The notes: generated by a model not told the origin, from the sequence alone. A DNA stretch of 64,000 bases from Verrucomicrobiota bacterium (GCA_047947115.1 CP170459.1:2075218-2139217), one strand, 5' to 3'. Positions 46,848 through 63,168 are shown, counted from the stretch's first letter. Made by a program: numbers and translations.

Positions 46848-49800
46848 ATGATGCTATTTGGAAAAAAACCGGAGTGGTTTCCTGTCTGCTCAGGGGTTGC
46901 TCGACTCATTCTTTCAACATTGTTATGCGCCTTGGTGGTGTGCGTCGCCAAGGCTCAGACCGCAGCGCCGCCAGTTTCCATCGTGGATGGTTTTGCAGCC
47001 AAAGACAACAGCACCGTTTTGGATGAAGATGGGGAACTGCCCGCCTATATTATTTTACGCAACAACCGCTCTCAAACAACAGCACCGATGGATTTGAGCG
47101 GTTATGCGTTGACCAGTGACAGCACGGGAAATGCTGTCTGGATCATTCCTCCACGCACTCTGATCGCGCCCCAGTCGGAATTGATCGTATTTGCTTCCGG
47201 CAAGAATCGTCCATCCAGCAATCCTGAATTGAGAAATCACACCGATTTCATATTCTCCTGTGAAATTCCCTACGTTGCGCTATTGGGCCCCAAGCGGGAG
47301 GTTGTTTCCACATTCCGTAAACTAGATCCCAATTGCAGCGGAAATGATGATGATTGCCGGGGGACGCCTCTGTTCCACGATAAAACCATCGGTCGCTACT
47401 TTGTGCCCAGTACCGACAAAATGACCGGTATCTGGATGGAACCTGACTTTGATGTCTCAAACTGGAAGCGTGGTCCACTTGGTCTGGGTTACGAAGTGCT
47501 GGAATCCAAGGGAGAACTGGACATGATCCTTTACGCGACCATGGATCGCACGGATCTGGATTTGGTGGCGAACATCGTCAAGGATGTCAGCGGGTCGCCC
47601 GTCGTGCATGATGGCCTGGCATCACAAAAAATCGCCATGACAACCGGGCAGATTCAACAAGGGATCAACATGGCGCAAGGTCAGGCCATTCGTTTTCGTC
47701 ACCATGACGAACTGGATCCCGTAACCAGCGATTTCACAGTGTCCATCTGGTGTCGCACTTTAGGGCAGGGAGATGAAGTGATCATTGCCAAAGGTGGATT
47801 GAACAACGAAACCACGGGTTGGGCGATTTTCAATCGTAAGGATGCCACCATCGTGCGATTGAACTATGGAAAGGCGGGCATCGTGGATTTGACGCTGCCA
47901 CGACTGGAGGTGGAGCGTTGGACACATCTTGCGTTTGTTATTGATCGGACTCAGAAAGCAGCTTTCGCGTACGTCAATGGAGTCGTGGCCGCGAATGCCG
48001 GTATACCGGCTGATGCCTTGCTCGCGCCTCGAACGGATATGTGGATTGGGGCACGTCCCGACGGGAATCCTCTTTTCACCGGCACGGTTGATGAAACCGT
48101 CATTTGGCGGCGTGCACTTTCCAAGGGAGAGATTCGCACGGTCGCCGCACTGGGAGCGAGTGGAAAACGACTGGATACGGCCGTTTCGACTGGCACGCCG
48201 ATTTATGTGGATCTCATTTCAACTGATGTGGAAACGGATATGTATGGAAAGGGTTCCAGTTTGTATGTGCGCATTCCGTTTTTGGTGAACGACCCGAACC
48301 TTGTGAGTGGATTGAACCTTTCCATGCATTACGATGATGGTTTTGTCTGCTATCTGAACGGCGTGGAAGTAGCCCGGAAAAACGCCCCGTCCACTACCTT
48401 CCCAGGGTACGATGCCACGGCTTCGAGCGATCGAGCGGATACGTTGGCTTTGACGGCGGAATCGATCAATCTGGCCAATGCCATCCGTTATCTGATTCCC
48501 GGGGAAAACCTCTTGGCGATTCATGGGTTGAATGTTTCGAAGGATGCGGGTCGTTTTGTGATCAAGCCACAACTTTGCCTGGAAGAAAGCGAACCTCAAG
48601 ATTGCGAGAAGACCACCAACGGGCGTGACTTCTGGTTGACCTTTCCCGGCAACGCTCCTGAAGACACAGGCAATCCGCTTCAGATCAGTTTGTGTGTGGC
48701 AGGCCTTGCGGGAACCACCGGACGTGTTGACGTCCCGGGTCTCGGTTTTTCGAAGAATTTTACGATACCGGCAAACGGTCCCACACCTGCCACGGGTAGC
48801 CTGATGTTGCCTTTGCCCCGGGAGGTTTCTCTGGAGGTCTCAGGAAAAATTGAATCCAAGGGAGTGAGGGTGCGTGCACAGTCGGATGTGAGTGTTTACG
48901 GCACGACACGTATCGATTATTCCACCGATTCCTTCCTTGGTTTGCCGGTCGATTGCCTTGGTAGAAATTATGTGACCATGGGCTATAAAAATGTATGGGA
49001 AGATATTCCTGTGCTGAACGGATCGCAGATTGGTCTGGTGGCGCCCTACAACGGGACCAAGGTGCTGATTGATGTCGGGACAAGCGCTTCCGGCGGCGTT
49101 CCGGTCGAGGTGACATTGAATGAAGGGGAGACGTACCTGTTGCGCGATACCGGCAACAGTCCGGCTGACTTGAGTGGTTCCCGCATTTTATCCAATTTAC
49201 CGGTCGGTGTGTTTGCTGGTCATCGTTGTGCGAATATCAATGGCAAGGATTTGTTCTTCTGCGATACGGTGCTTGAGCAACTGCTGCCCATCTCCGGTTG
49301 GGGAACACGTTACTGGAATGCCCCGCTCAGTACCCGCAACCATCTGCTTGGCGATGGCAAGGGTGACACGCTTCGAGTGACTGCTTCCGAAGATAACACG
49401 GCGGTGACCATCACCGATGATCAGGGAGCGAATGTTTTGGTCCTGAACGCCAATCAGATCCATGAACAATCGGTCATTGGACCCAGCTATGTTATCTCCG
49501 AGAAACCTGTTTTGACGGCGGTTTATGCGAATAGTTCCGATTTTGATCTCGTAACCGATTCAGATCCGTTCATGGTGATGTTGCAGCCTGAAATTCATTG
49601 GCTGGATCGCTACATTATTTGCACACCTCCCTCCAGTGATTTTGAACAGAGCTACGTCAATATCATTGCGCGGAATATCACAGAAGCATCCACCATTCGG
49701 CTTAACGGCGCCCCAATCGCGGGATTTCTGCCTCTTGGCGCCAGTGGCTATTTTTATGCGCAGGTCGATTTGGATCCGGCTTTGTTGCGGCATACGATTA

Positions 49801-51659
49801 CATCGACCCGTGCCGTATTTGGGGTGACGGTTTACGGCTTCAGTGAGTATGATTCCTACGGCTATCCCGGGGGAATGCGCTTTGACTCCGCCGGAGCCCC
49901 TTTTGTTGTATGCCCTCCTGACGTCACTATCCCGGCAGGTGAGAATTGCGAGGGAGTCATTCCTGATTTGAGTGAATTCATTCAGGTTGTGGATCCATGT
50001 GATGAAGGAGGCGATCGGCCGGTTCCCGGCGATGATTGCTTCGAATTTGAAGATCTTAAACTCCAAACCCTCATCCGTGATGGCGACACATTGACGATCA
50101 TCAGTGCATCGGGGAATCAAACCGCCAATGTAACGGCATCGGCTGCGGGATTTGCCGCTGTGGCTGCCGTGGTCAATGGGGGACAAGCCGGACATACGGG
50201 GAATGAGGTGCGCTTTGCCAACATCAATTTGACCTTCGTTTCTTCGGCTCTCACCTCAGGGTTTTCACTTTCATTCGGCGAATATGGTGGGTCCGTGAAC
50301 CTGGGGGTGAACAATGATCTTCAGACCGCCGCCAATATGGAGGATTTCAATGGCAAGACGATTGGGGGAGCACAGGTTGCTGTAACAGGTGCGACGGGCG
50401 GACAGGGGACGGGGACGCTGACTGTCACTGGAACCATCCGCAGTTTTACCATCGGTGGCCAGGAGTTTTTTATTGATCATATCTGCCCTGGAGGCGGAGG
50501 GACGGTTGAAGTGCCGGATTGTTATGAGTTCGAAGATCAGGATGCCAAACTGGTTCTACGTGTGGGAGACACAACACCCGCAACCAGTAGCACAGGAAAC
50601 TCGGTCACCGTTTTGGGCGCTCCTTTCACATGGTCCAATGGACAGGTGACTCAGGAGGGATCTGCCGCCATTCGAACCAATGGTCAAGCCGGGCACACGG
50701 GCAACGAGTTTGCCGTGAACAATATTCTGTTGAAATTCATCCCAACCGAGTCGTTTCCAAACGGTGTCTCCATACTGTTCGGCGAATACGGCGGCAATGT
50801 GAACCTGGAGGTTAACGGCGAATTGGCCAATGTCAGCAATTTCAGTGAACTGAGCGGCACCTCTCTGGGCGGGGCGCACATTCTCGTTACCGGTGGGACG
50901 GGTCAGGGATTGGGTGAATTGCACATCATTGGCGAGTTGAAGGAATTCGGGATTGGTGGTCAGGAATTGTTCATCGATCACCTTTGCCTGCTTCCAGCAA
51001 GAGCAGTGACGGTAGTGGATCGTATCACGACGAACCTTGGTTCTTTGACTCGATCCTTGGTGAAGCAGGCTGGTGTGGGGCAAAATTATATCGTCAAGCA
51101 AGATCCCCCTGCGGGTTTGATGGTCTCGGCAGGATCTTATGACGTCAGTGTGAGTGTGGTCGACCTGCAGGGAAACTCGATTGGAACATGCGTGACCCAA
51201 GTCAAGATTGTTGACGATTCGCCCGTCAAAATCGTCTGTCCTCCCAATATAACGGTCAACTGCCAACGTCCTGAAGGAGCATTGGTTTTTTGGGAGGGCC
51301 CAGTTGCCTACACCGAGCGATGCCAAATGCCCGTGGAGGTGAGGTGCAACTATGAACCCGGTGAATTGTTTCCGTTGGGTAATACCACCGTCACCTGCGT
51401 GGCCAAGAGTCCGTCCGGTGAAGTGGCTACATGTTCGTTTTTGGTGACGGTTGTCTGTGAAGATGTCGTCGTGCCAGATAATCCCACCGTCTCGATCAAT
51501 CTTTCAGATGGGACCGGCATTACACTGGATTGGCCGGCAGGAGGCTATTTGGAAGCCGCCGACAGTCCGCTGGGCCCTTGGGAAATCGTCCCCGAAGCCA
51601 GGCCTCCATTCAACATCAGTACCACTCGGAAGCAGGCATTTTATCGGATTCGTTATTAG
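46848..51659 (+). CDS. secreted 1,603-aa multidomain protein: lamin-tail domain, LamG, IgGFc-binding-N-like domain, two copies of an unassigned ~155-aa module, HYR domain
   Basis: Signal peptide MMLFGKKPEWFPVCSGVARLILSTLLCALVVCVAKAQ. LTD-like PAYIILRNN...MDLSGYALTSD...SELIVFASG. LamG-like DFTVSIWCRT...WTHLAFVIDRT...MWIGARPDG...ETVIWRRALSKGEI. GRDFWLTFPGN (IgGFc-binding-N-like). HYR-like CPPNITVNCQRPEGALVFWEGPVAYTERCQMPVEVRCNYEPGELFPLGNTTVTCVAKSPSGEVATCSFLVTV. Confidence 0.85.
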   Translation: MMLFGKKPEWFPVCSGVARLILSTLLCALVVCVAKAQTAAPPVSIVDGFAAKDNSTVLDEDGELPAYIILRNNRSQTTAPMDLSGYALTSDSTGNAVWIIPPRTLIAPQSELIVFASGKNRPSSNPELRNHTDFIFSCEIPYVALLGPKREVVSTFRKLDPNCSGNDDDCRGTPLFHDKTIGRYFVPSTDKMTGIWMEPDFDVSNWKRGPLGLGYEVLESKGELDMILYATMDRTDLDLVANIVKDVSGSPVVHDGLASQKIAMTTGQIQQGINMAQGQAIRFRHHDELDPVTSDFTVSIWCRTLGQGDEVIIAKGGLNNETTGWAIFNRKDATIVRLNYGKAGIVDLTLPRLEVERWTHLAFVIDRTQKAAFAYVNGVVAANAGIPADALLAPRTDMWIGARPDGNPLFTGTVDETVIWRRALSKGEIRTVAALGASGKRLDTAVSTGTPIYVDLISTDVETDMYGKGSSLYVRIPFLVNDPNLVSGLNLSMHYDDGFVCYLNGVEVARKNAPSTTFPGYDATASSDRADTLALTAESINLANAIRYLIPGENLLAIHGLNVSKDAGRFVIKPQLCLEESEPQDCEKTTNGRDFWLTFPGNAPEDTGNPLQISLCVAGLAGTTGRVDVPGLGFSKNFTIPANGPTPATGSLMLPLPREVSLEVSGKIESKGVRVRAQSDVSVYGTTRIDYSTDSFLGLPVDCLGRNYVTMGYKNVWEDIPVLNGSQIGLVAPYNGTKVLIDVGTSASGGVPVEVTLNEGETYLLRDTGNSPADLSGSRILSNLPVGVFAGHRCANINGKDLFFCDTVLEQLLPISGWGTRYWNAPLSTRNHLLGDGKGDTLRVTASEDNTAVTITDDQGANVLVLNANQIHEQSVIGPSYVISEKPVLTAVYANSSDFDLVTDSDPFMVMLQPEIHWLDRYIICTPPSSDFEQSYVNIIARNITEASTIRLNGAPIAGFLPLGASGYFYAQVDLDPALLRHTITSTRAVFGVTVYGFSEYDSYGYPGGMRFDSAGAPFVVCPPDVTIPAGENCEGVIPDLSEFIQVVDPCDEGGDRPVPGDDCFEFEDLKLQTLIRDGDTLTIISASGNQTANVTASAAGFAAVAAVVNGGQAGHTGNEVRFANINLTFVSSALTSGFSLSFGEYGGSVNLGVNNDLQTAANMEDFNGKTIGGAQVAVTGATGGQGTGTLTVTGTIRSFTIGGQEFFIDHICPGGGGTVEVPDCYEFEDQDAKLVLRVGDTTPATSSTGNSVTVLGAPFTWSNGQVTQEGSAAIRTNGQAGHTGNEFAVNNILLKFIPTESFPNGVSILFGEYGGNVNLEVNGELANVSNFSELSGTSLGGAHILVTGGTGQGLGELHIIGELKEFGIGGQELFIDHLCLLPARAVTVVDRITTNLGSLTRSLVKQAGVGQNYIVKQDPPAGLMVSAGSYDVSVSVVDLQGNSIGTCVTQVKIVDDSPVKIVCPPNITVNCQRPEGALVFWEGPVAYTERCQMPVEVRCNYEPGELFPLGNTTVTCVAKSPSGEVATCSFLVTVVCEDVVVPDNPTVSINLSDGTGITLDWPAGGYLEAADSPLGPWEIVPEARPPFNISTTRKQAFYRIRY
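50031..50993 (+). repeat. tandem duplication of a ~155-aa unassigned module inside the 1,603-aa gene
   Basis: Copy 1 (about 50031-50489): DDCFEFEDLKLQ...GQAGHTGNEVRFANINLTF...FSLSFGEYGGSVNLGVNNDLQ...FTIGGQEFFIDHICP. Copy 2 (about 50511-50993): PDCYEFEDQDAK...GQAGHTGNEFAVNNILLKF...VSILFGEYGGNVNLEVNGELA...FGIGGQELFIDHLCL. Confidence 0.8.
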
Positions 51660-51822
51660 ATCATTTGCAGTATGCGATGACGGAAATGGATTCGTTCACC
51701 TTATCATAAATCACGCCCTCTGTGCTCCAGGCACAGGGATGCAGAGGCTTTTCTGAAAAATATTAGGGCCAATCTGTAAGTTCGGGCAATCATATCCTTT
51801 CTGTTCATTTTTTACATTTCGG

Positions 51823-51849
51823 TGTAACCACTTCCATGGACATGGCGTT
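51823..51849 (+). promoter_or_regulatory. candidate ECF-type promoter upstream of the sigma-like gene
   Basis: TGTAAC (51823-51828), 17 nt, then CGTT (51846-51849), ending about 30 nt upstream of ATG 51879. AAC and CGT are the conserved cores of many ECF promoters (from memory). GCGTTGAAT is also repeated at 51845-51853 and 51868-51876. Confidence 0.3.
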
Positions 51850-51878
51850 GAATGGTTGAGTGCAGCCTGCGTTGAATC

Positions 51879-52718
51879 ATGGAGATGAAGCAACCCGATC
51901 TCGCTTCCCTGGTGGAGCGTGTCAGAGAGGGAGAGGAAGATGCCTTTCGTATCTTCATGGAAGTCCTGTACCCAACCGTGATCCGGATCGTCCGCTCTCA
52001 TTTGCCGGTAAGACAGTTGGAAGAGGATCTGGCGCAGGAGGTTTTCGTTCGGGTGTTCAAGCGCATCGATCAGTATCAGGCCCGTCCAGGCATACCGGTG
52101 ACGCACTGGGTGTGCCGGGTGGCAACCACCACATGCCTGGATGCATTGCGCGCCGAACGCAGGCGTCCTGAGTTGCGTTGGGCAGATCTCAGCGAGGATC
52201 AGGCGGAGTGGCTGCAATACATGGTGGCAGACGATCAGGAGGAGGCGCCTCATTCGGATTGCGATACCGGCGAGTTTTTGGAGAAAATGTTGGCTCAACT
52301 ATCTGTGGATGATTTGGGTGGTTTGCTGATTCCCCGTATCGATTTGTCGGAAGGTTCCGAATCAGATGTAGGAACGGAACCGATCGCCATCGGCGAACTT
52401 TGGTTGCGCAACTTGACTCTGGAGAAAAATGGTTGGGGTATCTCATCAAGTCAGTTGAACGTTGTCATTGTCAACACGGAGGAAGGACGCGTTCGGGCGC
52501 CACGCTGTATCCTTGCGGTCAGTAAAACCGATGACAACAAACCCGTGCTGATGATCTATGGCAAAAACGAGCAGCCCCTGCTGACATTGCCTTTATCCAA
52601 AGTGCAAAAGCATCAAACCAGGCCTCTGGATATGGTCACGTTCGATGACGGCAAGGTCGACCTTTGCATCAACGGTCAATATCAGGCCAGTTTCTCCGTG
52701 GCCGAATTATATTTGTAG
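51879..52718 (+). CDS. ECF-like sigma-70 family protein with region 2 but no recognisable region 4; unassigned ~140-aa C-terminal domain
   Basis: Sigma region 2 strings: EDAFRIFMEVLYPTVIRIVRSHL...EDLAQEVFVRVFKRIDQY...THWVCRVATTTCLDALRAERRR. After an acidic linker and ...EKMLAQLSVDD (about nt 52300), the remainder (GELWLRNLTLEKNGWGISSSQLNVVIVNTEEGRV...DLCINGQYQASFSVAELYL) shows no HTH pattern. Confidence 0.7.
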   Translation: MEMKQPDLASLVERVREGEEDAFRIFMEVLYPTVIRIVRSHLPVRQLEEDLAQEVFVRVFKRIDQYQARPGIPVTHWVCRVATTTCLDALRAERRRPELRWADLSEDQAEWLQYMVADDQEEAPHSDCDTGEFLEKMLAQLSVDDLGGLLIPRIDLSEGSESDVGTEPIAIGELWLRNLTLEKNGWGISSSQLNVVIVNTEEGRVRAPRCILAVSKTDDNKPVLMIYGKNEQPLLTLPLSKVQKHQTRPLDMVTFDDGKVDLCINGQYQASFSVAELYL

Positions 52719-52731
52719 CATTTTTTATTCG

Positions 52732-52780
52732 AAAACCACCCTGTTCGATTTGAAATCGTGCAGGGTGGTTTTTATTTCTT
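52732..52780 (+). terminator. rho-independent terminator after the sigma-like gene
   Basis: The 12-nt stem aaaaccaccctg (52732-52743) pairs with cagggtggtttt (52761-52772). The loop is 17 nt. A T-rich run follows (tttttatttctt), starting 14 nt after the stop codon. Confidence 0.75.
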
Positions 52781-52793
52781 TGGTTGCGTCACG

Positions 52794-52886
52794 TGGGATT
52801 GGGTTGCCCCTACAGGGCTCGTTATGTGGGGTGTGCGGGGTTCCCAGGGCGATGCCGTGGGCTGACATGGTTTGGACCTTTGGGCG
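52794..52886 (+). repeat. REP-like repeat, left copy (direct orientation)
   Basis: gtgggattgggttGCCCCTACAGGGCTcgt...cCCAGGGCGATGCCGTGGGctga...cctttggg shares ordered conserved boxes with 53549-53650. An inverted copy of the core (AGCCCTGTAGGGGC) lies at 53081-53094. Confidence 0.65.
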
Positions 52887-52979
52887 TATGGCGATCGGTT
52901 CCGTCGATTGATGTGCTTTGCCCTTTTAGGGTGCGCCTTTGGAGCTGTTTTTGTGATTAGACATTTTTTGGTCTTTTCA

Positions 52980-53094
52980 GGTTTGCCTGCAAACCGTAGT
53001 TCCCAATTGTTACGCCCCAACGGGGCAAGCTACAACAACCCAGAGCACCGCTCTGGGGCTGCAACAGATATTCATTTCTAAGCCCTGTAGGGGC
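52980..53094 (+). repeat. cluster of three short hairpins plus an inverted REP-like core, directly upstream of the Y1 transposase gene
   Basis: Hairpins: ggtttgc-ct-gcaaacc (52980-52995), gcccc-aac-ggggc (53014-53026) and cccagagc-acc-gctctggg (53039-53057). Then AGCCCTGTAGGGGC (53081-53094), 10 nt before ATG 53105. Confidence 0.6.
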
Positions 53095-53104
53095 GCCCCA
53101 AGAA

Positions 53105-53530
53105 ATGCCTCAATCACTCGCAAAAAATTGGATGCATTTGGTTTTTTCCACCAAACACCGAGAACGTCTCATTTCGGAGACTATTCGACCTTCTCTTCAT
53201 GCCTATATGGCTACGGTATTCAAAAACCTTCAATGCCCGGTATTGGCAATCAATTCGGTGGAGGATCATGTTCATATCCTGTTTTCACTTCATCGAACGG
53301 TGGCCCTTTCGAAAGTAGTGGAGGATGTGAAGAAATCTTCATCCAAATGGATAAAGAGTCAATCGAATGATTTCAGCAGATTTCAATGGCAGGCCGGGTA
53401 TGGCGCTTTTTCGCTGAGTGAATCAAATGTCCCTGCGGTTCAACAATACATTACCAATCAGGCAGAGCACCACCGGAAGGTATCTTTTCAGCATGAAATC
53501 CGAATATTTATGCGCAAAACATCACATTGA
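53105..53530 (+). CDS. IS200/IS605-family Y1 (HUH) transposase-like protein, RAYT-like
   Basis: 141-aa ORF. HUH motif in SVEDHVHILFS (53267-53275 encodes HVH). WQAGYGAFSLSES...VQQYITNQAEHH carries the catalytic-Tyr YIxNQ-type motif. Flanked by REP-like palindromes. Confidence 0.8.
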   Translation: MPQSLAKNWMHLVFSTKHRERLISETIRPSLHAYMATVFKNLQCPVLAINSVEDHVHILFSLHRTVALSKVVEDVKKSSSKWIKSQSNDFSRFQWQAGYGAFSLSESNVPAVQQYITNQAEHHRKVSFQHEIRIFMRKTSH

Positions 53531-53548
53531 TTTTGATGAACGGTTTGT

Positions 53549-53650
53549 GTGGGATTAGGCTGCCCCTACAGGGCTCGTGGTCACCAACGATTCGAAAAAC
53601 CAGGGCGGTGCCTTGGGCTGATTTATTATGCCCCTTTGGGGTGTGGGATG
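53549..53650 (+). repeat. REP-like repeat, right copy (direct orientation)
   Basis: gtgggattaggctGCCCCTACAGGGCTcgt...aCCAGGGCGGTGCCTTGGGctga...cccctttgggg. The core lies at 53562-53575, 31 nt after the transposase stop, in inverted orientation relative to the core at 53081-53094. Confidence 0.65.
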
Positions 53651-53745
53651 TACGTGCTAACTGATTGGTAGACGGATTCACCATGATCCTGAGTTTATAA
53701 AAAACGCTGTCGTCTCGGGTGTTTTTTGGGCATAATCCCGCCATC

Positions 53746-56376
53746 ATGACCGCGAAATACAAAGCCCCGGCCATCGTGCGGATTCTGTGTGGCCTCCTGG
53801 TTAATTTGTGGGGATCGCTCTGCATCGCTGATACTCAGCAGGTGGATTACGTCAGCGATATTCAACCGTTGCTGGAGAAACGTTGTTATCGTTGTCATGG
53901 ACCTGAAAAGCGCAAGGGTGGATTGCGTTTGGATATGAAAACCACCGTTTTGCAAGGTGGAGATTCAGGTGATGCTGCAATCGTCCCCGGGGAAGCAGAT
54001 CAGAGCCCGCTTGTTCGTCTGGTTTCATCGAAAGATGACAAGGAACGCATGCCGCCTGCCAACGCAGAGGAGGCGCCATTGACCGACGATGAATTGGAGA
54101 AGTTGCGGCGGTGGATCAATGCGGGAGCCGACTGGCCTGAGACGGGGGCATCAGTGATTCTTCCCGAGCCGGGGGAACTGAAAGTAACAGAGGAAGATCG
54201 ACAGCACTGGGCTTTTCGGCCCCTGGCGGACCCCTTGCCACCCACTTCACAAGATCCGCACTGGCAGCAGACTCCTGTCGACGCTTTCATTCTGCACGCA
54301 CAGGAGGCGCAGCAACTCACACCTTCCGCCCCAGCCGATGCACGTACTCTCATTCGGCGCTTGTATCTGGATTTGATCGGGCTACCTCCTTCTCCGGAAG
54401 AAATGTCCGATTGGACGCGGCGAATCGATCAATCGCCTAACGAGGTGGAGTTGCTGGTGGAATCCCTGTTGCACAGTCCGCACTATGGTGAGCGATGGGG
54501 ACGGCATTGGTTGGATGTGGCCCGTTATGCCGACAGCAATGGAATGGAACTCGATGCGGATCGTCCCAATGCCTATCGCTACCGTGATTTCGTGATTCGT
54601 GCCATGAACGATGATTTACCGTTTGATGAATTTGTTCGCTGGCAATTGGCGGGTGATGAGATTGCTCCGGACCATCCGGACGCGATTGCCGCCACCGGAT
54701 TCCTTGCGGCCGGGGTCAATACGATCCTGCCGGACAAGCAAATGGTGGAGGAAAAACTCCGTAACCGAGCCAACGAACTTGATGACATCGTATCGACCAC
54801 CGGTCAGGCCATGCTGGGGCTGACCCTCGCCTGTTGTCGCTGTCACGATCATAAGTATGATCCGGTTTCTTCCCGTGATTACTATCGGTTGACACGCGTA
54901 TTCACCAGCGGTGATCGAGCCGAGGTGCCATTGGTTTCGCCCGAAGAAGCAAAGCGACATCAACAAAAGGTGGCTGATTGGCGAAGATCGTATGATGAAG
55001 CGGTCAAGGAGCGTGACCAATGGCTCAAGGAAGCGCGCAAACCGGTGGAAGAGCGATTGTGTCGGGAACGGATCGCCAGCCTTGAAATCAGCGACACAGA
55101 TAAACAAATGCTGCTCGAATCCTCCCAAGAACCATCCGCGAAGAAATTGGCCGAGCGGTTCAAAAAGCAGCTGGTCCTTTCTGATTCAGATTATGTCGCC
55201 GCCCTGCCTGAGCAAAGCCGGCAGCGATGGAAGGCATTCAATCAACACATTTCGGAAATCAAAAAGCGTGAGCCAAATCCTCTGCCACTGGCTTATGCTT
55301 TTTCTGATTTTGGTCCCGAGCCGGAAGAAACCTGGTTTTTCGAACGCGGCAATTTCCTGGCTCGTAATGAACGGATGGATCTTGGTTTTTTGACCGTACT
55401 CACCTCCGGGAAAACAGCCGAAGCATACTGGAACGAAGCGAAAGCCCATCCGTTGCGTGATGATTCGACTTATCAACGCCGGGCATTGGCGGAATGGATG
55501 ACAGATCTGGATCATGGCGCCGGAGCTTTGTTGGCGCGTGTCATGGTGAATCGTGTCTGGCAACGTCATTTCGGCGAGGGATTGGTGCGTACGCCAAGCG
55601 ATTTCGGCACGCGAGGTGAGCGTCCCACACATCCCGAACTGCTGGAATGGCTCGCCACGGAATTTGTTCGGAGTGGCTGGAGCGTCAAACACCTGCACCG
55701 TTTGATATTGAACAGCGCCACGTATCAACAGGCGTCCGAGTATCGTCCCGCGATGGCCTCGATCGATTTGGAGAATCGATTATGGTGGCGTCAACTCCCG
55801 GCTCGTTTGGAAGCCGAAGCCTTGCGCGATGCCATGTTGTCCGTTGCAGGGCAACTCAATTTCGAAGCTTTCGGGCCCAGCTTCAAACCTCCCATTCAGC
55901 AGGAAGCCATGCAGGCACGCAATGTGAGAAATCCCTATCCGAAGGACGCCAAGGACTCTGCCCCGACTCGAAGGCGCAGCGTTTATATGTTCCATAAACG
56001 TGTCGTGCAATACCCGCTCATGCAGGCTTTCGATGCACCCGATGCACAGCAAAGTTGTGGCCGCCGAATGAATACTACCGTTGCGCCTCAAGCATTGGCA
56101 TTGTTGAATGATCCGTTCGTGCGATTGAGAGCCAGTGATCTGGCGGGGCGCATTCTGAAAGAAGCAGGGGATGACAGGGAAGCCCAAGTCAGGCGCGCAT
56201 TCGAACTTGCATTGAATCGAGCGCCCGAAGCCGCCGAACGAACCGATGCAACCGGTTTCCTGGCGCAACAAACAGATGAACGTACCCGCCGTGGTGAATC
56301 CAGCGCTTCACTGGCGGCGCTGACCGATTTTTGTCAGGCCCTGTTTGGGTTGAATGAATTTATTTATGTCGATTGA
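53746..56376 (+). CDS. PSCyt1/PSCyt2(DUF1549)/PSD1(DUF1553) domain protein (planctomycete-type cytochrome c family)
   Basis: ORF 53719..56376. ATG 53746 gives a signal peptide. Heme motif CYRCHGPEKRKGGLRLD (53884-53898 encodes CYRCH). DUF1549-like LIRRLYLDLIGLPPSPEE...HYGERWGRHWLDVARYADSNG. CCRCHDHKYDP. DUF1553-like tail. Confidence 0.9.
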   Translation: MTAKYKAPAIVRILCGLLVNLWGSLCIADTQQVDYVSDIQPLLEKRCYRCHGPEKRKGGLRLDMKTTVLQGGDSGDAAIVPGEADQSPLVRLVSSKDDKERMPPANAEEAPLTDDELEKLRRWINAGADWPETGASVILPEPGELKVTEEDRQHWAFRPLADPLPPTSQDPHWQQTPVDAFILHAQEAQQLTPSAPADARTLIRRLYLDLIGLPPSPEEMSDWTRRIDQSPNEVELLVESLLHSPHYGERWGRHWLDVARYADSNGMELDADRPNAYRYRDFVIRAMNDDLPFDEFVRWQLAGDEIAPDHPDAIAATGFLAAGVNTILPDKQMVEEKLRNRANELDDIVSTTGQAMLGLTLACCRCHDHKYDPVSSRDYYRLTRVFTSGDRAEVPLVSPEEAKRHQQKVADWRRSYDEAVKERDQWLKEARKPVEERLCRERIASLEISDTDKQMLLESSQEPSAKKLAERFKKQLVLSDSDYVAALPEQSRQRWKAFNQHISEIKKREPNPLPLAYAFSDFGPEPEETWFFERGNFLARNERMDLGFLTVLTSGKTAEAYWNEAKAHPLRDDSTYQRRALAEWMTDLDHGAGALLARVMVNRVWQRHFGEGLVRTPSDFGTRGERPTHPELLEWLATEFVRSGWSVKHLHRLILNSATYQQASEYRPAMASIDLENRLWWRQLPARLEAEALRDAMLSVAGQLNFEAFGPSFKPPIQQEAMQARNVRNPYPKDAKDSAPTRRRSVYMFHKRVVQYPLMQAFDAPDAQQSCGRRMNTTVAPQALALLNDPFVRLRASDLAGRILKEAGDDREAQVRRAFELALNRAPEAAERTDATGFLAQQTDERTRRGESSASLAALTDFCQALFGLNEFIYVD

Positions 56377-56415
56377 TTGGGTGAACTGTATCGAACTTGA
56401 AAAGAATTATTGGTC

Positions 56416-57840
56416 ATGAAAAGCATGCATCAACATTGTGGTCGCTTCGAAGCGGTTCATACACGCAGGGATTTCCTCAAGAAGGCTGGGGGAGGTTTTG
56501 GTATGTACGCCTTGGCGGATTTGATGTCGAAAAACGGATTGCTCGCTGACGAGACGCTTCCGGATCCCTTGCACCCCATGGCTCCGCGCGCAGGGCATTA
56601 TCCCGCCAAAGCCAAAGCGGTCATCTGGTTGTTCATGGAGGGCGCGCCCAGTGCCGTGGACATGTTCGATCCAAAACCCGAATTGACAAAACGTGACGGT
56701 CAGCGGATGGAAATTGATGTGTTCAATGGCAACCCGGGCCCCCTGATGAAATCCCCCTTTGAGTTCAAACAATACGGACAAAGCGGAGCCTGGGTATGTG
56801 AACATTATCCGAACGTCGCCAAACATGTGGATGAATTCGCCTTCATCAATTCCTTTTACAGTGAATCAAACGATCATGTACCGGCACTCTATCAAATCAA
56901 TACCGGCATCCCGCGCCCGGGGTGTCCGAGTGCGGGCGCCTGGATTACCTACGGGTTGGGTTCCGAGAACAGCGATCTACCCGGATATGTTGTGCTGGGC
57001 AATAATCGCGGTGTGAAAGGCGGTAATTTAAATTGGAGTTCCGCGTTTCTGCCGACGACTTACCAGGGAACACTGTTTCGCCCTGAAGGTGTTCCTGTGA
57101 TCAATCTCACACGGCCGGGTGACGTCACCCAACAGGATCAACGGGCTCAACTGGACCTCATGTCCAAATTGAATCATCGTCACCTGGCGGCTCGCCCTGG
57201 TGAAGAGGAATTGTTGGGGCGCATTCAGAGCTTCGAGCTGGCCTATCGCATGCAGATGGAGGCTTCTGATTTGGTCGATCTGGAAAGGGAATCAGCCGAG
57301 ACCCGGGAAATGTACGGCGTGGATGAAAAGGAAACCCGTTCCTATGGACGAAAATGTCTCATGGCCCGACGTCTCATCGAACGTGGCGTTCGTTTCGTGC
57401 AGGTTTACAGCGACGGAGAATGGGATGCGCACAGCGATCTCAATGGGAACCACCGTGGACACTGCCGCGCTACCGACAAACCCATTCACGCCCTGTTGAC
57501 CGATCTTAAACGTACGGGATTAATTGATGACACTCTGGTTATCTGGGGTGGGGAGTTCGGACGCATGCCGGTATCCCAGGGCAACGGTGGGCGTGATCAT
57601 AATCCTCAAGGCTTCGGCATGTTCATGACTGGCGCCGGCATCAAGCCCGGTGTGCGTTACGGTGAGTTGGATGAAATCGGATACAAAGCAGCTGTCGATC
57701 GCGTATCCGTGCACGACCTGCATGCCACCATGCTGCACCTGCTCGGGCTCGATCACGAGCGCCTGACCTTTTTCCACAACGGCCGCCGCTTCAGGCTGAC
57801 CGACGTGGCGGGAGAGATCATTCGCCCGGTGTTGGCCTAG
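56416..57840 (+). CDS. DUF1501 domain protein (sulfatase-fold, Tat signal), usual partner of PSCyt/PSD proteins
   Basis: RRDFLKKAGGGFGMYALADL Tat-type leader, plus ...WLFMEGAPSAVDMFDPKPEL... and ...GGEFGRMP...GRDHNPQGF. The gene lies 39 bp downstream of the PSD gene. Confidence 0.9.
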   Translation: MKSMHQHCGRFEAVHTRRDFLKKAGGGFGMYALADLMSKNGLLADETLPDPLHPMAPRAGHYPAKAKAVIWLFMEGAPSAVDMFDPKPELTKRDGQRMEIDVFNGNPGPLMKSPFEFKQYGQSGAWVCEHYPNVAKHVDEFAFINSFYSESNDHVPALYQINTGIPRPGCPSAGAWITYGLGSENSDLPGYVVLGNNRGVKGGNLNWSSAFLPTTYQGTLFRPEGVPVINLTRPGDVTQQDQRAQLDLMSKLNHRHLAARPGEEELLGRIQSFELAYRMQMEASDLVDLERESAETREMYGVDEKETRSYGRKCLMARRLIERGVRFVQVYSDGEWDAHSDLNGNHRGHCRATDKPIHALLTDLKRTGLIDDTLVIWGGEFGRMPVSQGNGGRDHNPQGFGMFMTGAGIKPGVRYGELDEIGYKAAVDRVSVHDLHATMLHLLGLDHERLTFFHNGRRFRLTDVAGEIIRPVLA

Positions 57841-58125
57841 GAAGTGGTCGAAACCCAATTTTAGATTAATGCGTGCGAAGTCATGCTGGAGGTGGAATGA
57901 CTTTTGTGATTCCGACCCCGTTGAGAGACTCGGTTGGCTGCTGTAAGAATCCGTTCGTGCTACTAGCTTTTTGTGGTTTGTCCTTTGGGGCCGGGCGTGA
58001 TGGGGGGCTGGTATCCCTTGGGAAGGTGTTTGGGATTTGAATGGCATAAGGGTTACGCGCCGGGGCGCCACATTCTACCTTTTGGCCCGCTTGACGAACT
58101 TTGATGGTCAGCGTTGAATGGGGGT

Positions 58126-61100
58126 ATGTCAGCCATTGGTCGATTCCTTTTGTGGATGTTTTTTTTGGTGTGTACTGGTTTGGTCGCCCAATCTGCGGAG
58201 CCCGTTTTTCGAGCGGGAGCTGCTCGTGTGGATATTGGTCCCGAGGGATTTCCTGTAAGGGTGAACGCCATGTTCACAGAGCGTTCTGCTGATCGTGTTG
58301 AAGATCCACTTTTTGCCAAAGCCCTGGCGTTGGATGACGGACGTGAGCGGATTGTGGTGTGCGTGGTGGATACCTGCATGATCCCACGTAATTTGATCGA
58401 TCAAGCCAAGCTGCTGACGCACAGAGCGACAGGATTGCCATTGGATCGCATGTTGGTTTCCGCAACGCATACGCATTCGGCTCCTTCGGCCATGGGATGT
58501 CTGGGGAGTCGGGTGGATCCGCGTTACGCCACCACCCTTCCACCCAAAATTGCTCGAGCCATGATCCATGCAATCGAGCGGCTTCAACCGGCTCGGGTTG
58601 GCTGGGGGCAGGTGGATGATTGGGAGCATACCTTCAACCGACGCTGGGTGCGACGGCCGGATCGCGTGTTTGCGGATCCGTTCGGAGTTCCCAATGTCAG
58701 GGCGCACATGCATCCAGGTCACGAAAGCCCGGATGCCGTGGGGCCAAGCGGGCCGGTGGATCCGGAGCTGTCCGTACTTGCCGTGCAGACAATCGATGGA
58801 CGCCCGCTCGCGCTTCTGGCTAATTATTCCATGCACTATTATGGATCTCCTTTGTTATCTTCTGATTATTATGGACGATTTGCGGGTTACATGGGGGCCA
58901 TGCTTGATGCGGATGATGAGTTTGTAGCGATCATGTCGCAGGGGACCAGCGGGGATTTGATGTGGATGGATTACGGCGCTCCTCGTAAGGATACTGGTTA
59001 TGACACATATGCTAAAGAAATCGCCGAAAAAGTGACCACCCTTGTGAATAACCTTGAATGGCAGGATGCCGCGCCATTGGGGATGGCGCAACGTATCCTG
59101 GCTTTATCCTATCGTGTGCCGAGTCCAGAACGACTGGCCTGGTCCAAAGAAAAAGTAGCTGAATTGGAAGGGCGCCTGCCTCAGTCGCAATCTGAGATTT
59201 ATGCATTGGAATCAGTTTACCTCCACGAAAAACAACATACAGAACTTGTCCTTCAGGCGCTTCGTATTGGCGATCTGGGCATCACGGCGCTTCCCAATGA
59301 AGTGTATGCCTTGACTGGTTTAAAGTTGAAGGAGCAAAGCCCGTTTGCATCGACCTTCAATATCGAACTTGCCAACGGAGCTGAGGGATACATTCCGCCT
59401 CCGGAACAGCATGCTCTCGGAGGTTATACCACTTGGGCGGCACGCACGGCCGGGTTGGAAGTGGAGGCTGAACCGAAGATCGTGGAGGCATTGCTTTCTT
59501 TACTGGAGGAAGTGTCGGGCAAAACCAGGCGAACTGTAGGTGCGGATGCCGGTCCTTATTCGGAAACGGTTCTCGAAAGTCACCCGGAAGCCTACTGGCG
59601 ATTGGAAGAAATGAACATGCCGGTTGCGCGCGATGTGACGGGGCAACATGACGGCGCGTTTGAAGACGGTGTGGCGTTGCATCTTCCCGGTGCCGATGAG
59701 CGCAGGGGATTTCAGCCACCTGAACCGCCCACCAAGAATGCTTTTTCCGGAAATGCGATCAATCGCGCAGTTCATTTTGCGGGAGGGCGAATGCGTTCTG
59801 ATGTACTTCTGGACGATGCGTACAGTGTGGAGTTCTGGTTGTGGAATGGGTTGCCAGCCGATGCGCGTGCCGTGACGGGCTATGCTTACTCACGTGGAGC
59901 GGATGGGGACGGCGTGGCGCGTGGTGAACATCTTGGCATCGGTGGAACTCATATGCCTCACTTGGCTGGACGGTTGTTTCTGTTCAATGGAAACGAACGG
60001 AATCAGATCCTGGGTGGGCAGACCACACTTGCGTTGCGGGCGTGGCATCATGTCGTGTTTGTGCGTGAAGGGGAACGGGTGCGGGTGCATCTGGACGGGA
60101 AACAGGAGCCTGAAATCGAAGGCATTTTTAAACATACGATCCCGCAAGGCGAGAATGCTTTGTTCATGGGAGGGCGCAACGACGGATTGTTCAACTTTGA
60201 AGGCAAGCTGGATGAAATCTCTGTTTACACGCGAGCGCTAACCGCATTGGAAATTGAAACACATTACAAGTTTTCCGATTTGACGCCTCCCGATAAGATA
60301 ACCGCTACGGGGCCTTTGGAACCTGCTCTGTCGCCGGAGGAGGCTTTGAAGAAGATTCACGTGCGTGATGGTTACCAGGTGGAATTGATTGTAAGCGAAC
60401 CTTTGACCGTGGATCCGGTGGCGATCGATTGGGATGCCTCGGGGCGCTTATGGGTGGTGGAGATGTCGGATTATCCTTTGGGGATGGACGGGCAGGGGAA
60501 ACCTGGCGGTCGTGTTCGTGTGATTGAAGATAGTGATGGTGATGGAAGCTATGATCGACAAACCTTGTTTGCGGACGGGTTGACGTATCCGACCGGATTA
60601 TTGGTCTGGCGTGATGGGGTGATGGTGACGGCGGCACCCAATGTCTTGTTTCTGAGGGACACCGACAAGGATGGTCGTGCGGATGATCAAGAAGTGTTGA
60701 TCAGCGGATTAAGCACGGGGAATCAGCAACTACGAGCCAACGGACTGCGATGGGGGATCGATGGGTGGGTTTATTGTGCGGCGGGAGGACATCATGGCAA
60801 TTTTGCCAACGGCACTCGTTTACGTACCCGTCTGGGAGAAGTTCAGGTCGGTTCGCGTGATTTTCGGTTTCGTCCTGACACGGGTGAATTGGAACCTTTG
60901 AGCGGACCTTCCCAAAACGGTCGCAATCGGGATGACTGGGGGCATTGGTTCGGGACGCAGAACATGAGGCCTCTGTGGCATTACGTGCTGCCGGATCGAT
61001 ATCTCAGGAGGCAACCGCATGTTGCATCGCCGAGTCCCATTCAGTTGGTGGTGACACCGCTGGGACCGAAAGTGTATCCGGCAAGTTCTCCGGAAAAACG

Positions 61101-63168
61101 CTTTCACAGTTTTAATGAAGCCGGTCGTTTTACATCCGCATGCGGAGGGATGATCTATCGTGATTCCTTGTTGTTCCCGAAGACAGGCAATCAAATGCAT
61201 GCGTTTACTTGTGAGCCTTTTCATAATCTGGTTCAGCATAATATGGTAGTGGATCAGGGAGTGTCCTTTGCTGCACATCGTGATGGGGGTGATGGTGTGC
61301 ATGATTTCTTCGCCAGCGAAGATCGCTGGTGTCGTCCCGTGATGACACGGACCGGACCGGACGGTGCACTGTGGGTGGTGGATATGTATCGCTATATGAT
61401 TGAGCATCCGGACTGGTTGCCGGCTGCCGGTCGTGACGAGTTACTGCCGAATTATCGGATCGGAGACGATCTCGGGCGTATCTATAGGGTGGTTCGAAAG
61501 GATTCTGGCATAGAGCCCCAAACAAAGCTCGATCAACTGTCGATTGCCGAACTGGTCGAAGAACTCAAGTCCGGCAATGGCTGGCGACGTGATCGCGCCC
61601 ATATGATGCTCAGTTGGCAAAAGGATCAGGCGGTTGTGGGGCATGTGAGAAAGCTTGCCGAGGCGACTGCAAATCCGGTTGCAAAGGTGCATGCATTATG
61701 GCTTTTAAATGATTCAGGTGGATTGACCCCTGATCATATTCGAACCGCCTTGAAACATTCGCATCCTCGAGTGCGGGAGAATGCGCTTCGACTTGCCGAA
61801 TCAAGCAAAGAAACCTCGGTGGTGCGAGTTGCCGCGGAGTTGGTGAATGATCCGGATGACAAAGTCCGTTTGCAGTTGGCTTTTTCGCTGGGTGAATGGG
61901 ATCAACCGATGGCAGGTGACGCACTGGGAAAATTGGCGGTGGCATCGGCTGATGACGCGTTTATGAAGGCGGCTGTGTTGAGTTCAGCTACACCCCACTT
62001 GAGAGCATTGGCCGGTGCGGTGATTCAATCGGATTCAACAGTTCAAGGTGCGTTGATGGAATCCTTGATCGAACTTGCGTTCGCATTGAATGAACGGGAT
62101 GTGTTGGCTGAATTGTTGGAACCCATGATGGGTAAATCCGATGAATCCTTCACCTTGGAAACTTATGAATCCGCGACGGCATTCTTTCAATTGGTCAAAA
62201 GACGTGGTTCGAAATGGGGGGATTTGGCCAACCTGGACGATGCCCTGGGCAAGTTGTTGACCCATGTGTTTTCGAACAATGCGGATTCAATTGTTAACTC
62301 CGCGCTCAAAACGGTCAAACAAGATTCGGCAAGCGTGGGATTACGTGCCGCTGCTATTCGATGCGTCGGGGAAATGGCAGAGGGTCGTTCCGAGGTGGTG
62401 GACGTGTTGGTCGATTTGTTGACACCGCAACAGCCGATTTCGATTCAGGAAGCTTCGCTGGAAGGGTTGACTTCTGTGGACGAGTCTTTTGTGGCAGCAA
62501 AGGTTTTGGATCGTTGGGCGAGTTTCTCGCCATCAACCCGTGCTAAAGCGATGCAACTTCTCTTATCCCGCGAGTCATGGACCATTGTTTTACTCGAGCG
62601 GTTAGTCAAAGGTCAGGACATTCCTCTGGATGCCTTGCAACGTGAACGTTTGATGAGGCATGGATCAATACGCGTACGTGAATTGGCGTCTCAAATGCTC
62701 GCTACTCCTTCAGATCGGGCTCAAGTGATCGAGCAATTTCGACCGGCTCTGCGTTTGGGTGGAGATGCCGACCGTGGGCGGTCGGTTTACGAACGGGCCT
62801 GTGCCCTTTGTCATCGAAAGGGTAATCAGGGTAAAGAAGTCGGACCGGATTTGAATTCCGTGGTTCGGCATTCACCTGAAAAACTGCTGGCCAACATACT
62901 GGATCCGAGCGCGGACATTCAACCCGGTTACCACGCATACCAATGTGAGTTGACGAATCATGCTGAAATGTATGGAGTGATCACTTCGGAAACCGGGAAC
63001 AGTCTCACGATGAAACTTGCGGACGGAACGGAACACGTCATTTTGCGTCGTGATATTCGGGAACTGCGCGGAGGGAATCTATCCTTGATGCCTGAAGGCT
63101 TGGAACGGGGTTTGACGCAACAAGACATGGCGGATTTGATCCAATGGTTGAGGACAGAGGTGGATTGA
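58126..63168 (+). CDS. 1,680-aa fusion: ceramidase-N-like hydrolase domain, LamG, PVC-type membrane-bound-dehydrogenase-like propeller, HEAT repeats, C-terminal cytochrome c
   Basis: Signal peptide MSAIGRFLLWMFFLVCTGLVAQSAEP. ARVDIGPEGFPV...DPLFAKALALDDGRERIVVCVVDTCMI...MLVSATHTHSAPS (neutral-ceramidase-N-like). YSVEFWLWNG...WHHVVFVREGERVRVHLDG...KLDEISVYTRALTALEI (LamG, about 59640-60280). VDPVAIDWDASGRLWVVEM... (about 60355-61480). HEAT-like region. CALCHRKGNQGKEVGPDLNSV (CxxCH at 62800-62814). Confidence 0.8.
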   Translation: MSAIGRFLLWMFFLVCTGLVAQSAEPVFRAGAARVDIGPEGFPVRVNAMFTERSADRVEDPLFAKALALDDGRERIVVCVVDTCMIPRNLIDQAKLLTHRATGLPLDRMLVSATHTHSAPSAMGCLGSRVDPRYATTLPPKIARAMIHAIERLQPARVGWGQVDDWEHTFNRRWVRRPDRVFADPFGVPNVRAHMHPGHESPDAVGPSGPVDPELSVLAVQTIDGRPLALLANYSMHYYGSPLLSSDYYGRFAGYMGAMLDADDEFVAIMSQGTSGDLMWMDYGAPRKDTGYDTYAKEIAEKVTTLVNNLEWQDAAPLGMAQRILALSYRVPSPERLAWSKEKVAELEGRLPQSQSEIYALESVYLHEKQHTELVLQALRIGDLGITALPNEVYALTGLKLKEQSPFASTFNIELANGAEGYIPPPEQHALGGYTTWAARTAGLEVEAEPKIVEALLSLLEEVSGKTRRTVGADAGPYSETVLESHPEAYWRLEEMNMPVARDVTGQHDGAFEDGVALHLPGADERRGFQPPEPPTKNAFSGNAINRAVHFAGGRMRSDVLLDDAYSVEFWLWNGLPADARAVTGYAYSRGADGDGVARGEHLGIGGTHMPHLAGRLFLFNGNERNQILGGQTTLALRAWHHVVFVREGERVRVHLDGKQEPEIEGIFKHTIPQGENALFMGGRNDGLFNFEGKLDEISVYTRALTALEIETHYKFSDLTPPDKITATGPLEPALSPEEALKKIHVRDGYQVELIVSEPLTVDPVAIDWDASGRLWVVEMSDYPLGMDGQGKPGGRVRVIEDSDGDGSYDRQTLFADGLTYPTGLLVWRDGVMVTAAPNVLFLRDTDKDGRADDQEVLISGLSTGNQQLRANGLRWGIDGWVYCAAGGHHGNFANGTRLRTRLGEVQVGSRDFRFRPDTGELEPLSGPSQNGRNRDDWGHWFGTQNMRPLWHYVLPDRYLRRQPHVASPSPIQLVVTPLGPKVYPASSPEKRFHSFNEAGRFTSACGGMIYRDSLLFPKTGNQMHAFTCEPFHNLVQHNMVVDQGVSFAAHRDGGDGVHDFFASEDRWCRPVMTRTGPDGALWVVDMYRYMIEHPDWLPAAGRDELLPNYRIGDDLGRIYRVVRKDSGIEPQTKLDQLSIAELVEELKSGNGWRRDRAHMMLSWQKDQAVVGHVRKLAEATANPVAKVHALWLLNDSGGLTPDHIRTALKHSHPRVRENALRLAESSKETSVVRVAAELVNDPDDKVRLQLAFSLGEWDQPMAGDALGKLAVASADDAFMKAAVLSSATPHLRALAGAVIQSDSTVQGALMESLIELAFALNERDVLAELLEPMMGKSDESFTLETYESATAFFQLVKRRGSKWGDLANLDDALGKLLTHVFSNNADSIVNSALKTVKQDSASVGLRAAAIRCVGEMAEGRSEVVDVLVDLLTPQQPISIQEASLEGLTSVDESFVAAKVLDRWASFSPSTRAKAMQLLLSRESWTIVLLERLVKGQDIPLDALQRERLMRHGSIRVRELASQMLATPSDRAQVIEQFRPALRLGGDADRGRSVYERACALCHRKGNQGKEVGPDLNSVVRHSPEKLLANILDPSADIQPGYHAYQCELTNHAEMYGVITSETGNSLTMKLADGTEHVILRRDIRELRGGNLSLMPEGLERGLTQQDMADLIQWLRTEVD

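Follow-up and report, generated by a model that had tools for sequence, protein, structure and literature searches.

The sigma-4 domain is needed by extracytoplasmic function (ECF) sigma factors to contact the -35 element and the beta flap, and sigma factors reduced to region 2 are known, such as gp55 of phage T4. The definition of the ECF family requires a sigma-2 plus a sigma-4 domain (PMC7826278). Some ECF groups, including ECF41, ECF42, ECF56, ECF294 and others, carry C-terminal extensions that follow an intact sigma-4 and are conserved across the group, and a region-2-only protein is found in Bacillus, where RsoA is the partner of SigO in the two-subunit sigma factor SigO-RsoA (PMC7826278). 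The open reading frame (ORF) considered here encodes 279 amino acids (aa) at positions 51879-52718 (plus strand) of a 64,000-nucleotide stretch of a Verrucomicrobiota bacterium (GCA_047947115.1, CP170459.1:2075218-2139217), the whole of which is referred to as the window. The original prediction described it as an ECF-like sigma factor with region 2 and apparently no region 4, fused to an unknown domain. Comparison with its relatives indicates that it is an accidental in-frame chimera produced by a deletion destroying a four-gene ECF stress-signalling cassette and most likely a dead remnant, a reading that can be given a probability of about 85%.

The chimeric ORF joins residues 1-145 of a sigma factor to residues 67-200 of a secreted protein. 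Its Sigma-70 region 2 domain (51963-52166, plus strand; aa 29-96) is matched by the Pfam model PF04542 Sigma70_r2 with an E-value of 4.3e-13. It is followed, at 52167-52305 (plus strand), by the acidic linker between sigma-2 and sigma-4 and by the first 12 residues of sigma-4, corresponding to the region 4.1 helix, the remaining part of this domain including its helix-turn-helix (HTH) being gone. The last part (52314-52718, plus strand) is the 3' part of the ancestral gene for a 200-aa secreted protein, i.e., codons 67-200 and the stop codon, and encodes a truncated beta domain. Alignments with the NCBIfam ECF models end near residue 145, and with TIGR02937, the model of the ECF superfamily, the window protein scores 42.0 bits, slightly under the cut-off of 42.9, as against 83.2 bits for P0002, an intact relative. 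No sigma-4 model is matched in a Pfam scan down to E<=10. In the AlphaFold2 (AF2) model of the chimera (predicted template modelling score, pTM, 0.53), helices occupy residues 8-139 and strands residues 148-276. The sigma-2 part is helical with a predicted local distance difference test (pLDDT) of 80-90, the linker (aa 94-165) is low with a pLDDT of 50-61, and the C-terminal half is all-beta without HTH, the mutual orientation of the parts being not fixed.

Pfam, NCBIfam and AF2 thus concur with the predicted ECF region 2 without region 4, and the AF2 strands at 148-276 with a beta-looking C-terminal domain devoid of HTH. The place where sigma-4 was said to begin, EKMLAQLSVDD, was also correctly located, since the Sigma70_r4_2 domain of P0002 extends over aa 134-184; judged from this relative, 12 of the 51 domain residues are retained in the window protein. 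A cryptic sigma-4 HTH in the C-terminal part, envisaged in the same prediction, is found neither by Pfam at E<=10 nor in the AF2 model. Compared with the ECF (group 4) definition, the window protein possesses region 2 and lacks region 4 with its -35-binding HTH. In public databases, it is named 'RNA polymerase sigma factor' (NCBI record XOV73153.1, the same protein with the start codon placed two codons later) or 'sigma-70 factor (ECF subfamily)' in the Joint Genome Institute (JGI) names of P0121-P0123. Annotation of the chimera as a sigma factor is misleading, region 4 being absent.

A homologue search of the ORF among 5.8 billion proteins reveals that two families meet in it. On the N-terminal side, aa 1-145 share 99% identity with P0002, an ordinary 200-aa ECF sigma factor with Sigma70_r2 at 29-96 and Sigma70_r4_2 at the position given above. 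On the C-terminal side (134 residues), P0004 and its relatives are 200-aa proteins opening with the signal-peptide-like MMKTSKILLTLALLGTLTVANA and continuing with QERL, and the 3' part of the window ORF is 98-100% identical in nucleotides to the 3' end of their gene (loci L001-L008 and L020). These same loci are intact and collinear with the window on both sides of a segment of 1,119 bp, which is absent from the window between two TGGATGAT direct repeats of equal codon phase. In L001, the two copies of this 8-bp repeat stand at 9371-9378 and 10490-10497, whereas the window retains a sole copy at 52306-52313 (plus strand), which is the deletion junction. Indeed, BLASTN alignments of the window with the intact loci run at 99.3-99.6% identity to 52313 and resume at 52306 after skipping 1,119 bases, the 8-base overlap of the left and right alignments being TGGATGAT itself. 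Both parental genes read the repeat as xTG GAT GAT, i.e., (V/M)-D-D, and because its phase is identical in the two genes and the deletion amounts to 373 codons, the fusion is automatically in frame.

From the sigma gene, the deletion has taken residues 146-200, i.e., the sigma-4 domain minus 12 residues, HTH included, and from the 200-aa gene codons 1-66, i.e., the signal peptide and the first ~45 mature residues. Also lost are an entire gene for a 98-aa protein, an entire gene for a 135-aa protein and an intergenic promoter, P2. The junction is devoid of mobile-element sequence. As in a microhomology deletion, the intact ancestral arrangement is found in relatives and short repeats stand at both ends of the lost segment, one of them being kept. 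No remnant of sigma-4, of the 98-aa gene or of the 135-aa gene occurs elsewhere in the 64-kb window (tblastn E>0.2; chance matches only in blastn), including the downstream sequence in all frames, where a search for sigma-4 remnants had been suggested. Thus, the ORF almost certainly arose by a single short-repeat deletion within a four-gene ECF cassette. The original prediction had hesitated between (a) a fusion or truncation derived from a rearrangement and (b) a genuine sigma2-only regulator. The former is confirmed by one in-frame deletion and by relatives at 99% identity with an intact sigma-4; that these carry a normal sigma-4 is essentially the outcome that had been named as speaking against a genuine sigma2-only factor.

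The ancestral cassette is deduced from the contigs carrying the intact allele. On the contig of P0002, the gene order is a giant gene (7793 aa), a 1603-aa gene, the sigma gene (200 aa), the 98-aa, 135-aa and 200-aa genes, a gene for a transposase associated with repetitive extragenic palindromic (REP) sequences, called RAYT and present in some contigs, then PSCyt/PSD and DUF1501 genes. The cassette itself includes, in this order, promoter P1, the ECF sigma gene (200 aa), the 98-aa gene, the 135-aa gene, promoter P2, the gene for the 200-aa Sec-secreted beta-protein and a terminator. The 98-aa protein is a single-pass membrane protein whose start overlaps the sigma end by 14 nt, the two genes being translationally coupled. 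The 135-aa (134/135-aa) protein is N-terminally membrane-anchored, periplasmic and helical. Pfam and NCBIfam give zero matches for the former; for the latter, the only hints, LTXXQ and Metal_resist, stay below threshold, and a sequence search of the PDB with these two middle genes is empty.

The cassette extends over 8888-10902 in L001, 8585-10600 in L019, 5946-7962 in L023 and 5945-7959 in L024, the window keeping its two ends only. L019, an uncultured Verrucomicrobiota metagenome-assembled genome (MAG) with 87% nucleotide identity, is the sole locus obtained from a scan of genome contigs with the 200-aa protein and serves as outgroup, and the sigma factors of L023 and L024 are 74% and 62% identical, respectively. 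Gene lengths and overlaps are kept in these three loci, and the neighbours of the cassette are unrelated in L023 and L024 (lactonase and CotH; flagellin). Between species, dN/dS values of 0.08-0.23 across all four cassette genes denote purifying selection. Because the cassette is conserved in distant lineages and the fusion is confined to one cluster, the intact arrangement can be considered ancestral and functional and the window arrangement a derived deletion. All sigma orthologues at 62-99% identity are 200 aa long, without any extension.

The closest described counterparts of the intact cassette are SigW-RsiW (PDB 5wuq) and sigma-E-RseA (PDB 1or7). The intact allele can be aligned over its entire length with the structures of SigW, sigma-E and SigH, and the intact cassette likewise combines sigma-2 and sigma-4, an autoregulated ECF-type promoter and a coupled single-pass membrane protein. 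It differs from these systems in that its putative anti-sigma matches no known anti-sigma family, whereas the window copy keeps the sigma-2 half without sigma-4 and without the putative anti-sigma.

P1 is an ECF-type promoter, GGTGTAACC-N15-GCGTT, found as an exact match at 51821-51849 (plus strand); it probably served the autoregulation of the ancestral sigma operon and now stands before the chimera. The core TGTAAC-N17-CGTT, at 51823-51849, is the single match in 64 kb and, taken alone, is compatible with chance, as 17 of 100 shuffles contain at least one. TGTAACC followed by (G/A)CGTT is conserved upstream of sigma in L001, L019, L023 and L024, with diverging spacer and flanks; this constant position of the motif in four lineages, despite a variable spacer, shows that P1 is real. 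The same motif (TGTAACC-N15-RCGTT) constitutes P2 ahead of the 200-aa gene of each of the four intact cassettes, inside the deleted segment. Together, P1 and P2 would be what is expected when an ECF sigma factor is autoregulated and has a second, internal target promoter. P1 is unchanged in every fusion contig covering it, and, with up to 2 mismatches allowed, the window contains no other copy of the P1/P2 motif. Such a promoter had been judged odd before a protein that may be unable to read a -35 element. Its presence is upheld by the conservation in four lineages, whereas the oddness is explained, P1 being inherited from the intact sigma gene. In L002 and L004, a near-match lacking CGTT, TGTAACC...CCGT, is seen on the minus strand, close to where the DUF1501 gene ends.

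At the other end, the ancestral 200-aa gene has an intrinsic terminator, a hairpin (inverted repeat I2; -27.6 kcal/mol, z = -7.15) followed by a U-tract at 52731-52773 (plus strand). Between the 1603-aa gene and P1, there is only a weak hairpin (z = -1.46), and read-through into the chimera is therefore possible.

The full 200-aa protein was modelled with AF2 from a 17-sequence alignment (pLDDT 79, pTM 0.79). The model displays a disordered signal region (1-22), short helices at 28-38 and 42-46 and a beta-rich body, the first hairpin of which, made of strands 60-64 and 67-74, is split by the junction. The N-terminal part lost by the deletion includes the strongly conserved QERL..AK.YAQLTRQNP and contributes two helices and one strand to the predicted fold. 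When 1.84 billion representatives are searched with a profile, 301 family members (50% clustering) are obtained, 168 of them at E<=1e-10. Among the 150 best-scoring of these 301, from which layouts were drawn, nearly all are ~200 aa long and match profile positions ~5-195, lost N-terminal part included; none displays a sigma-fusion layout, and the longer members tested are without a sigma domain. The window copy begins at family residue 67 and does not show this full-length architecture. The family has no Pfam or NCBIfam model, and Foldseek, run on the model of the 200-aa protein, gives no PDB match at E<=0.001. Tandem duplications with two matched stretches account for some members (383-392 aa), and one of 749 aa carries AhpC/Redoxin domains at its N-terminus.

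Exactly the same junction as in the window is seen in 10 further contigs (L009-L018) from independent JGI and Logan assemblies. Because these independently assembled contigs share it alongside intact alleles, the variant is real and segregating. All fused sequences fall into a single cluster, which has six members at least 97% identical. Within the species-level group, the fusion allele is carried by ~15 of ~51 contigs from at least three projects, figures that are contig counts and not allele frequencies, and both alleles are present within one sample series (Ga0615097-Ga0615130). A 24-nt exact-match scan next to the junction in a metagenome contig collection is empty, this collection being evidently without these JGI samples.

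Three single-nucleotide polymorphisms (SNPs) located 1.3-1.5 kb upstream are common to five fusion contigs and absent from six intact contigs. In the 2.1 kb upstream, fusion contigs differ from each other at 0-7 positions and from intact contigs at 6-25. The shared upstream SNPs favour a single origin as the most likely history of the deletion allele. Since all four combinations of aa 17 (D/E) and aa 197 (I/M) are found among fusion alleles, this allele has recombined with its surroundings since its origin. A test of relaxed selection on the first 18 alleles (7 nonsynonymous and 3 synonymous changes in the fusion form versus 0 and 5 in the intact form; Fisher p = 0.026) was retracted. It is invalid because every variant taken as fusion-specific (E17, I197M, S230N and the T247/R248/T254/F255 tract) is also found in intact alleles, some being ancestral according to the outgroup. 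E17 is carried by the intact P0128 and P0129, the I-to-M change by P0140 and P0145, and N230 with the T-R...T-F tract by P0141-P0143. Among the alleles compared, there is no fusion-specific amino-acid change, hence no evidence of decay or adaptation. One fusion contig, L013, displays an extra 49-bp deletion between TCTGT repeats, at window positions 51724-51772, in the sequence separating the 1603-aa gene from P1. It takes out a small hairpin (51718-51738) and represents another case of microhomology deletion within this population.

A plausible course of events can be proposed. Illegitimate recombination or replication slippage between the two TGGATGAT repeats would excise the 1,119 bp and, in one step, remove the sigma factor, the putative anti-sigma, the 135-aa periplasmic protein and the secreted output. 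With the loss of its cognate sigma factor, P1 would leave the chimera probably weakly transcribed. Any product would consist of a sigma-2 domain tethered to a truncated and mislocalised cytoplasmic beta domain, probably unstable, and the loss of sigma-4 suggests that it would be unable to direct transcription. The chimera is, quite probably, a functionally dead remnant, and the deletion allele now segregates with the intact one in a recombining natural Verrucomicrobiota population.

Some points could be raised against this view. The ORF is open in 11/11 copies, in frame and with P1 intact; the openness of these copies carries no weight either way, given the 0-7 differences per 2.1 kb and a 1-in-3 chance of being in frame. 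The deletion allele is not rare among the contigs, perhaps because either the loss or the chimera is selected for. A paralogous ECF sigma factor reading P1, or a second intact cassette, is possible elsewhere in the 6-Mb genome, beyond the 64-kb window. Finally, the 98-aa protein is a putative anti-sigma, assigned solely from its position and topology.

Among the competing explanations, the one that survives best agrees with the accidental chimera on the identity of the ORF. According to it, the loss itself is adaptive, removal of the cassette and hence of the secreted beta-protein or of envelope signalling being favoured in some environments with the chimera as a by-product. The number of contigs and projects with the deletion allele, its persistence on recombined haplotypes (aa 17 x aa 197) and the co-occurrence of both alleles in the Ga0615097-Ga0615130 series are in line with such an advantage. 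However, contig counts do not give allele frequencies, several contigs perhaps come from the same samples, and neutral hitch-hiking of a strain lineage accounts for the same data. An adaptive loss is rather unlikely.

The chimera could also be a functional sigma2-only protein, acting as a decoy or competitor for the core of the RNA polymerase (RNAP), or as a partner-dependent sigma factor, with the beta domain or another protein standing in for sigma-4. Its sigma-2 domain is complete and confidently folded in the model and holds the main determinants of core binding and -10 recognition, and the open frame and intact P1 mentioned above are compatible with a function. On the other side, the C-terminal part is a truncated secreted protein, deprived of a conserved N-terminal segment and of one strand, the architecture is limited to one within-species allele group without any fusion-specific amino-acid change, no sigma-4-only partner lies in the window, and the sole identifiable promoter depends on the lost sigma activity. 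This explanation is very unlikely. Equally improbable is the scenario in which the chimera, transcribed by read-through or by an ECF paralogue cross-reading P1, would compete for the RNAP core and its allele would be kept by selection. Alternative (b) of the original prediction, a genuine sigma2-only regulator, decoy or anti-sigma-like factor, thus finds no support, as its C-terminus is a fragment of a secreted protein and as it is known from one allele group at >=97% identity.

Comparison with the described region-2-only and extended sigma factors leads to the same distinction. The chimera resembles RsoA and T4 gp55 in having region 2 without region 4, but those are conserved, dedicated proteins with a promoter-anchoring partner, whereas the chimera has no partner in the window and derives from a recent deletion in a single population. 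An RsoA-like system would call for sigma-4-like sequence, of which there is none in the window, and the architecture does not extend beyond the >=97% identical cluster. As in the ECF groups with C-terminal extensions, an ECF N-terminus is linked to a non-sigma domain of ~130 aa. Here, in contrast, the extra domain replaces sigma-4, comes from a separate gene and is absent in all orthologues, so that the chimera does not belong to these groups. With respect to bacterial microhomology deletions that make chimeric ORFs and pseudogenes, the repeats are the same, one copy is kept, the alleles coexist and nothing essential differs, the event in the window being unusual only as it is in frame and entails a clean loss of a whole regulatory cassette.

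A role of the neighbouring RAYT/REP element in the fusion had also been put forward. A Y1_Tnp/RAYT gene and REP-like repeats are indeed located 75-860 bp downstream of the ORF. The block extends over 52793-53578, outside the deletion event, and includes REP-like copies of ~21-30 nt with a TGCCCCTACAGGGCT core at 52793-52822, 53081-53101 (inverted) and 53549-53578, which bracket the Y1_Tnp/RAYT gene (53105-53530). This gene begins 387 bp after the ORF, in agreement with the predicted distance of about 400 bp. However, the junction consists of the 8-bp microhomology and contains no REP sequence, the nearest copy being ~480 bp off. A block of ~756 bp between direct REP copies is moreover present or absent among contigs otherwise 98-99% identical, and it assorts independently of the deletion: among fusion alleles, it is present in the window and absent from L010, L013 and L017, and among intact alleles, it is present in L001 and absent from L004 and L020. 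With all four combinations observed, causation by RAYT/REP is refuted and can be considered highly improbable. The RAYT ORF of L001 encodes 179 aa versus 141 aa in the window and is only 91% identical. Lastly, an assembly or binning artefact, conceivable since the window appears metagenome-assembled, is refuted by the recurrence of the junction in 10 other contigs, which stem from different samples and were built by two assembly pipelines, an 8-bp repeat being far too short to fool an assembler, and its likelihood is negligible.

The two giant genes reported upstream are indeed present. The product of the first (23363-46744) has 7793 aa, and the precomputed hits of relatives include Calx-beta, SdrD_B and HemolysinCabind; that of the second (46848-51659) has 1603 aa, with Laminin_G_3, IgGFc_binding and HYR. 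Only the closest lineages (L001-L020, L019) have these two genes next to the cassette, which is not the case in L023/L024. The proposed regulation of these giant genes by the sigma factor is unsupported: the cassette stands beside unrelated genes elsewhere and, since P1 is the sole copy of the motif in the window, nothing ties the sigma factor to them. Downstream of the RAYT block, a PSCyt1/PSCyt2/PSD1 protein (885 aa) and a DUF1501 protein (476 aa) are encoded at 53719-57840, a pair also located beside the cassette in L024, and are followed by a 1684-aa Laminin_G_3/DUF7133/HEAT protein at 58114-63168.

The finding is above all a correction of the public annotation and bears on genome mining, because searches of databases for region-4-less sigma factors or for novel ECF C-terminal extensions would pick this chimera as a false positive. 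If it nevertheless proved to be a core-binding competitor, it would represent a natural, recently born 'sigma2-only' modulator caught at its origin. The locus otherwise offers a clean example of a one-step microhomology knockout of a sigma/anti-sigma/output cassette segregating in a wild population. It also provides a new lead, namely an uncharacterised and conserved four-gene ECF cassette with two matching promoters and a secreted family of ~200 aa without Pfam or PDB structural match.

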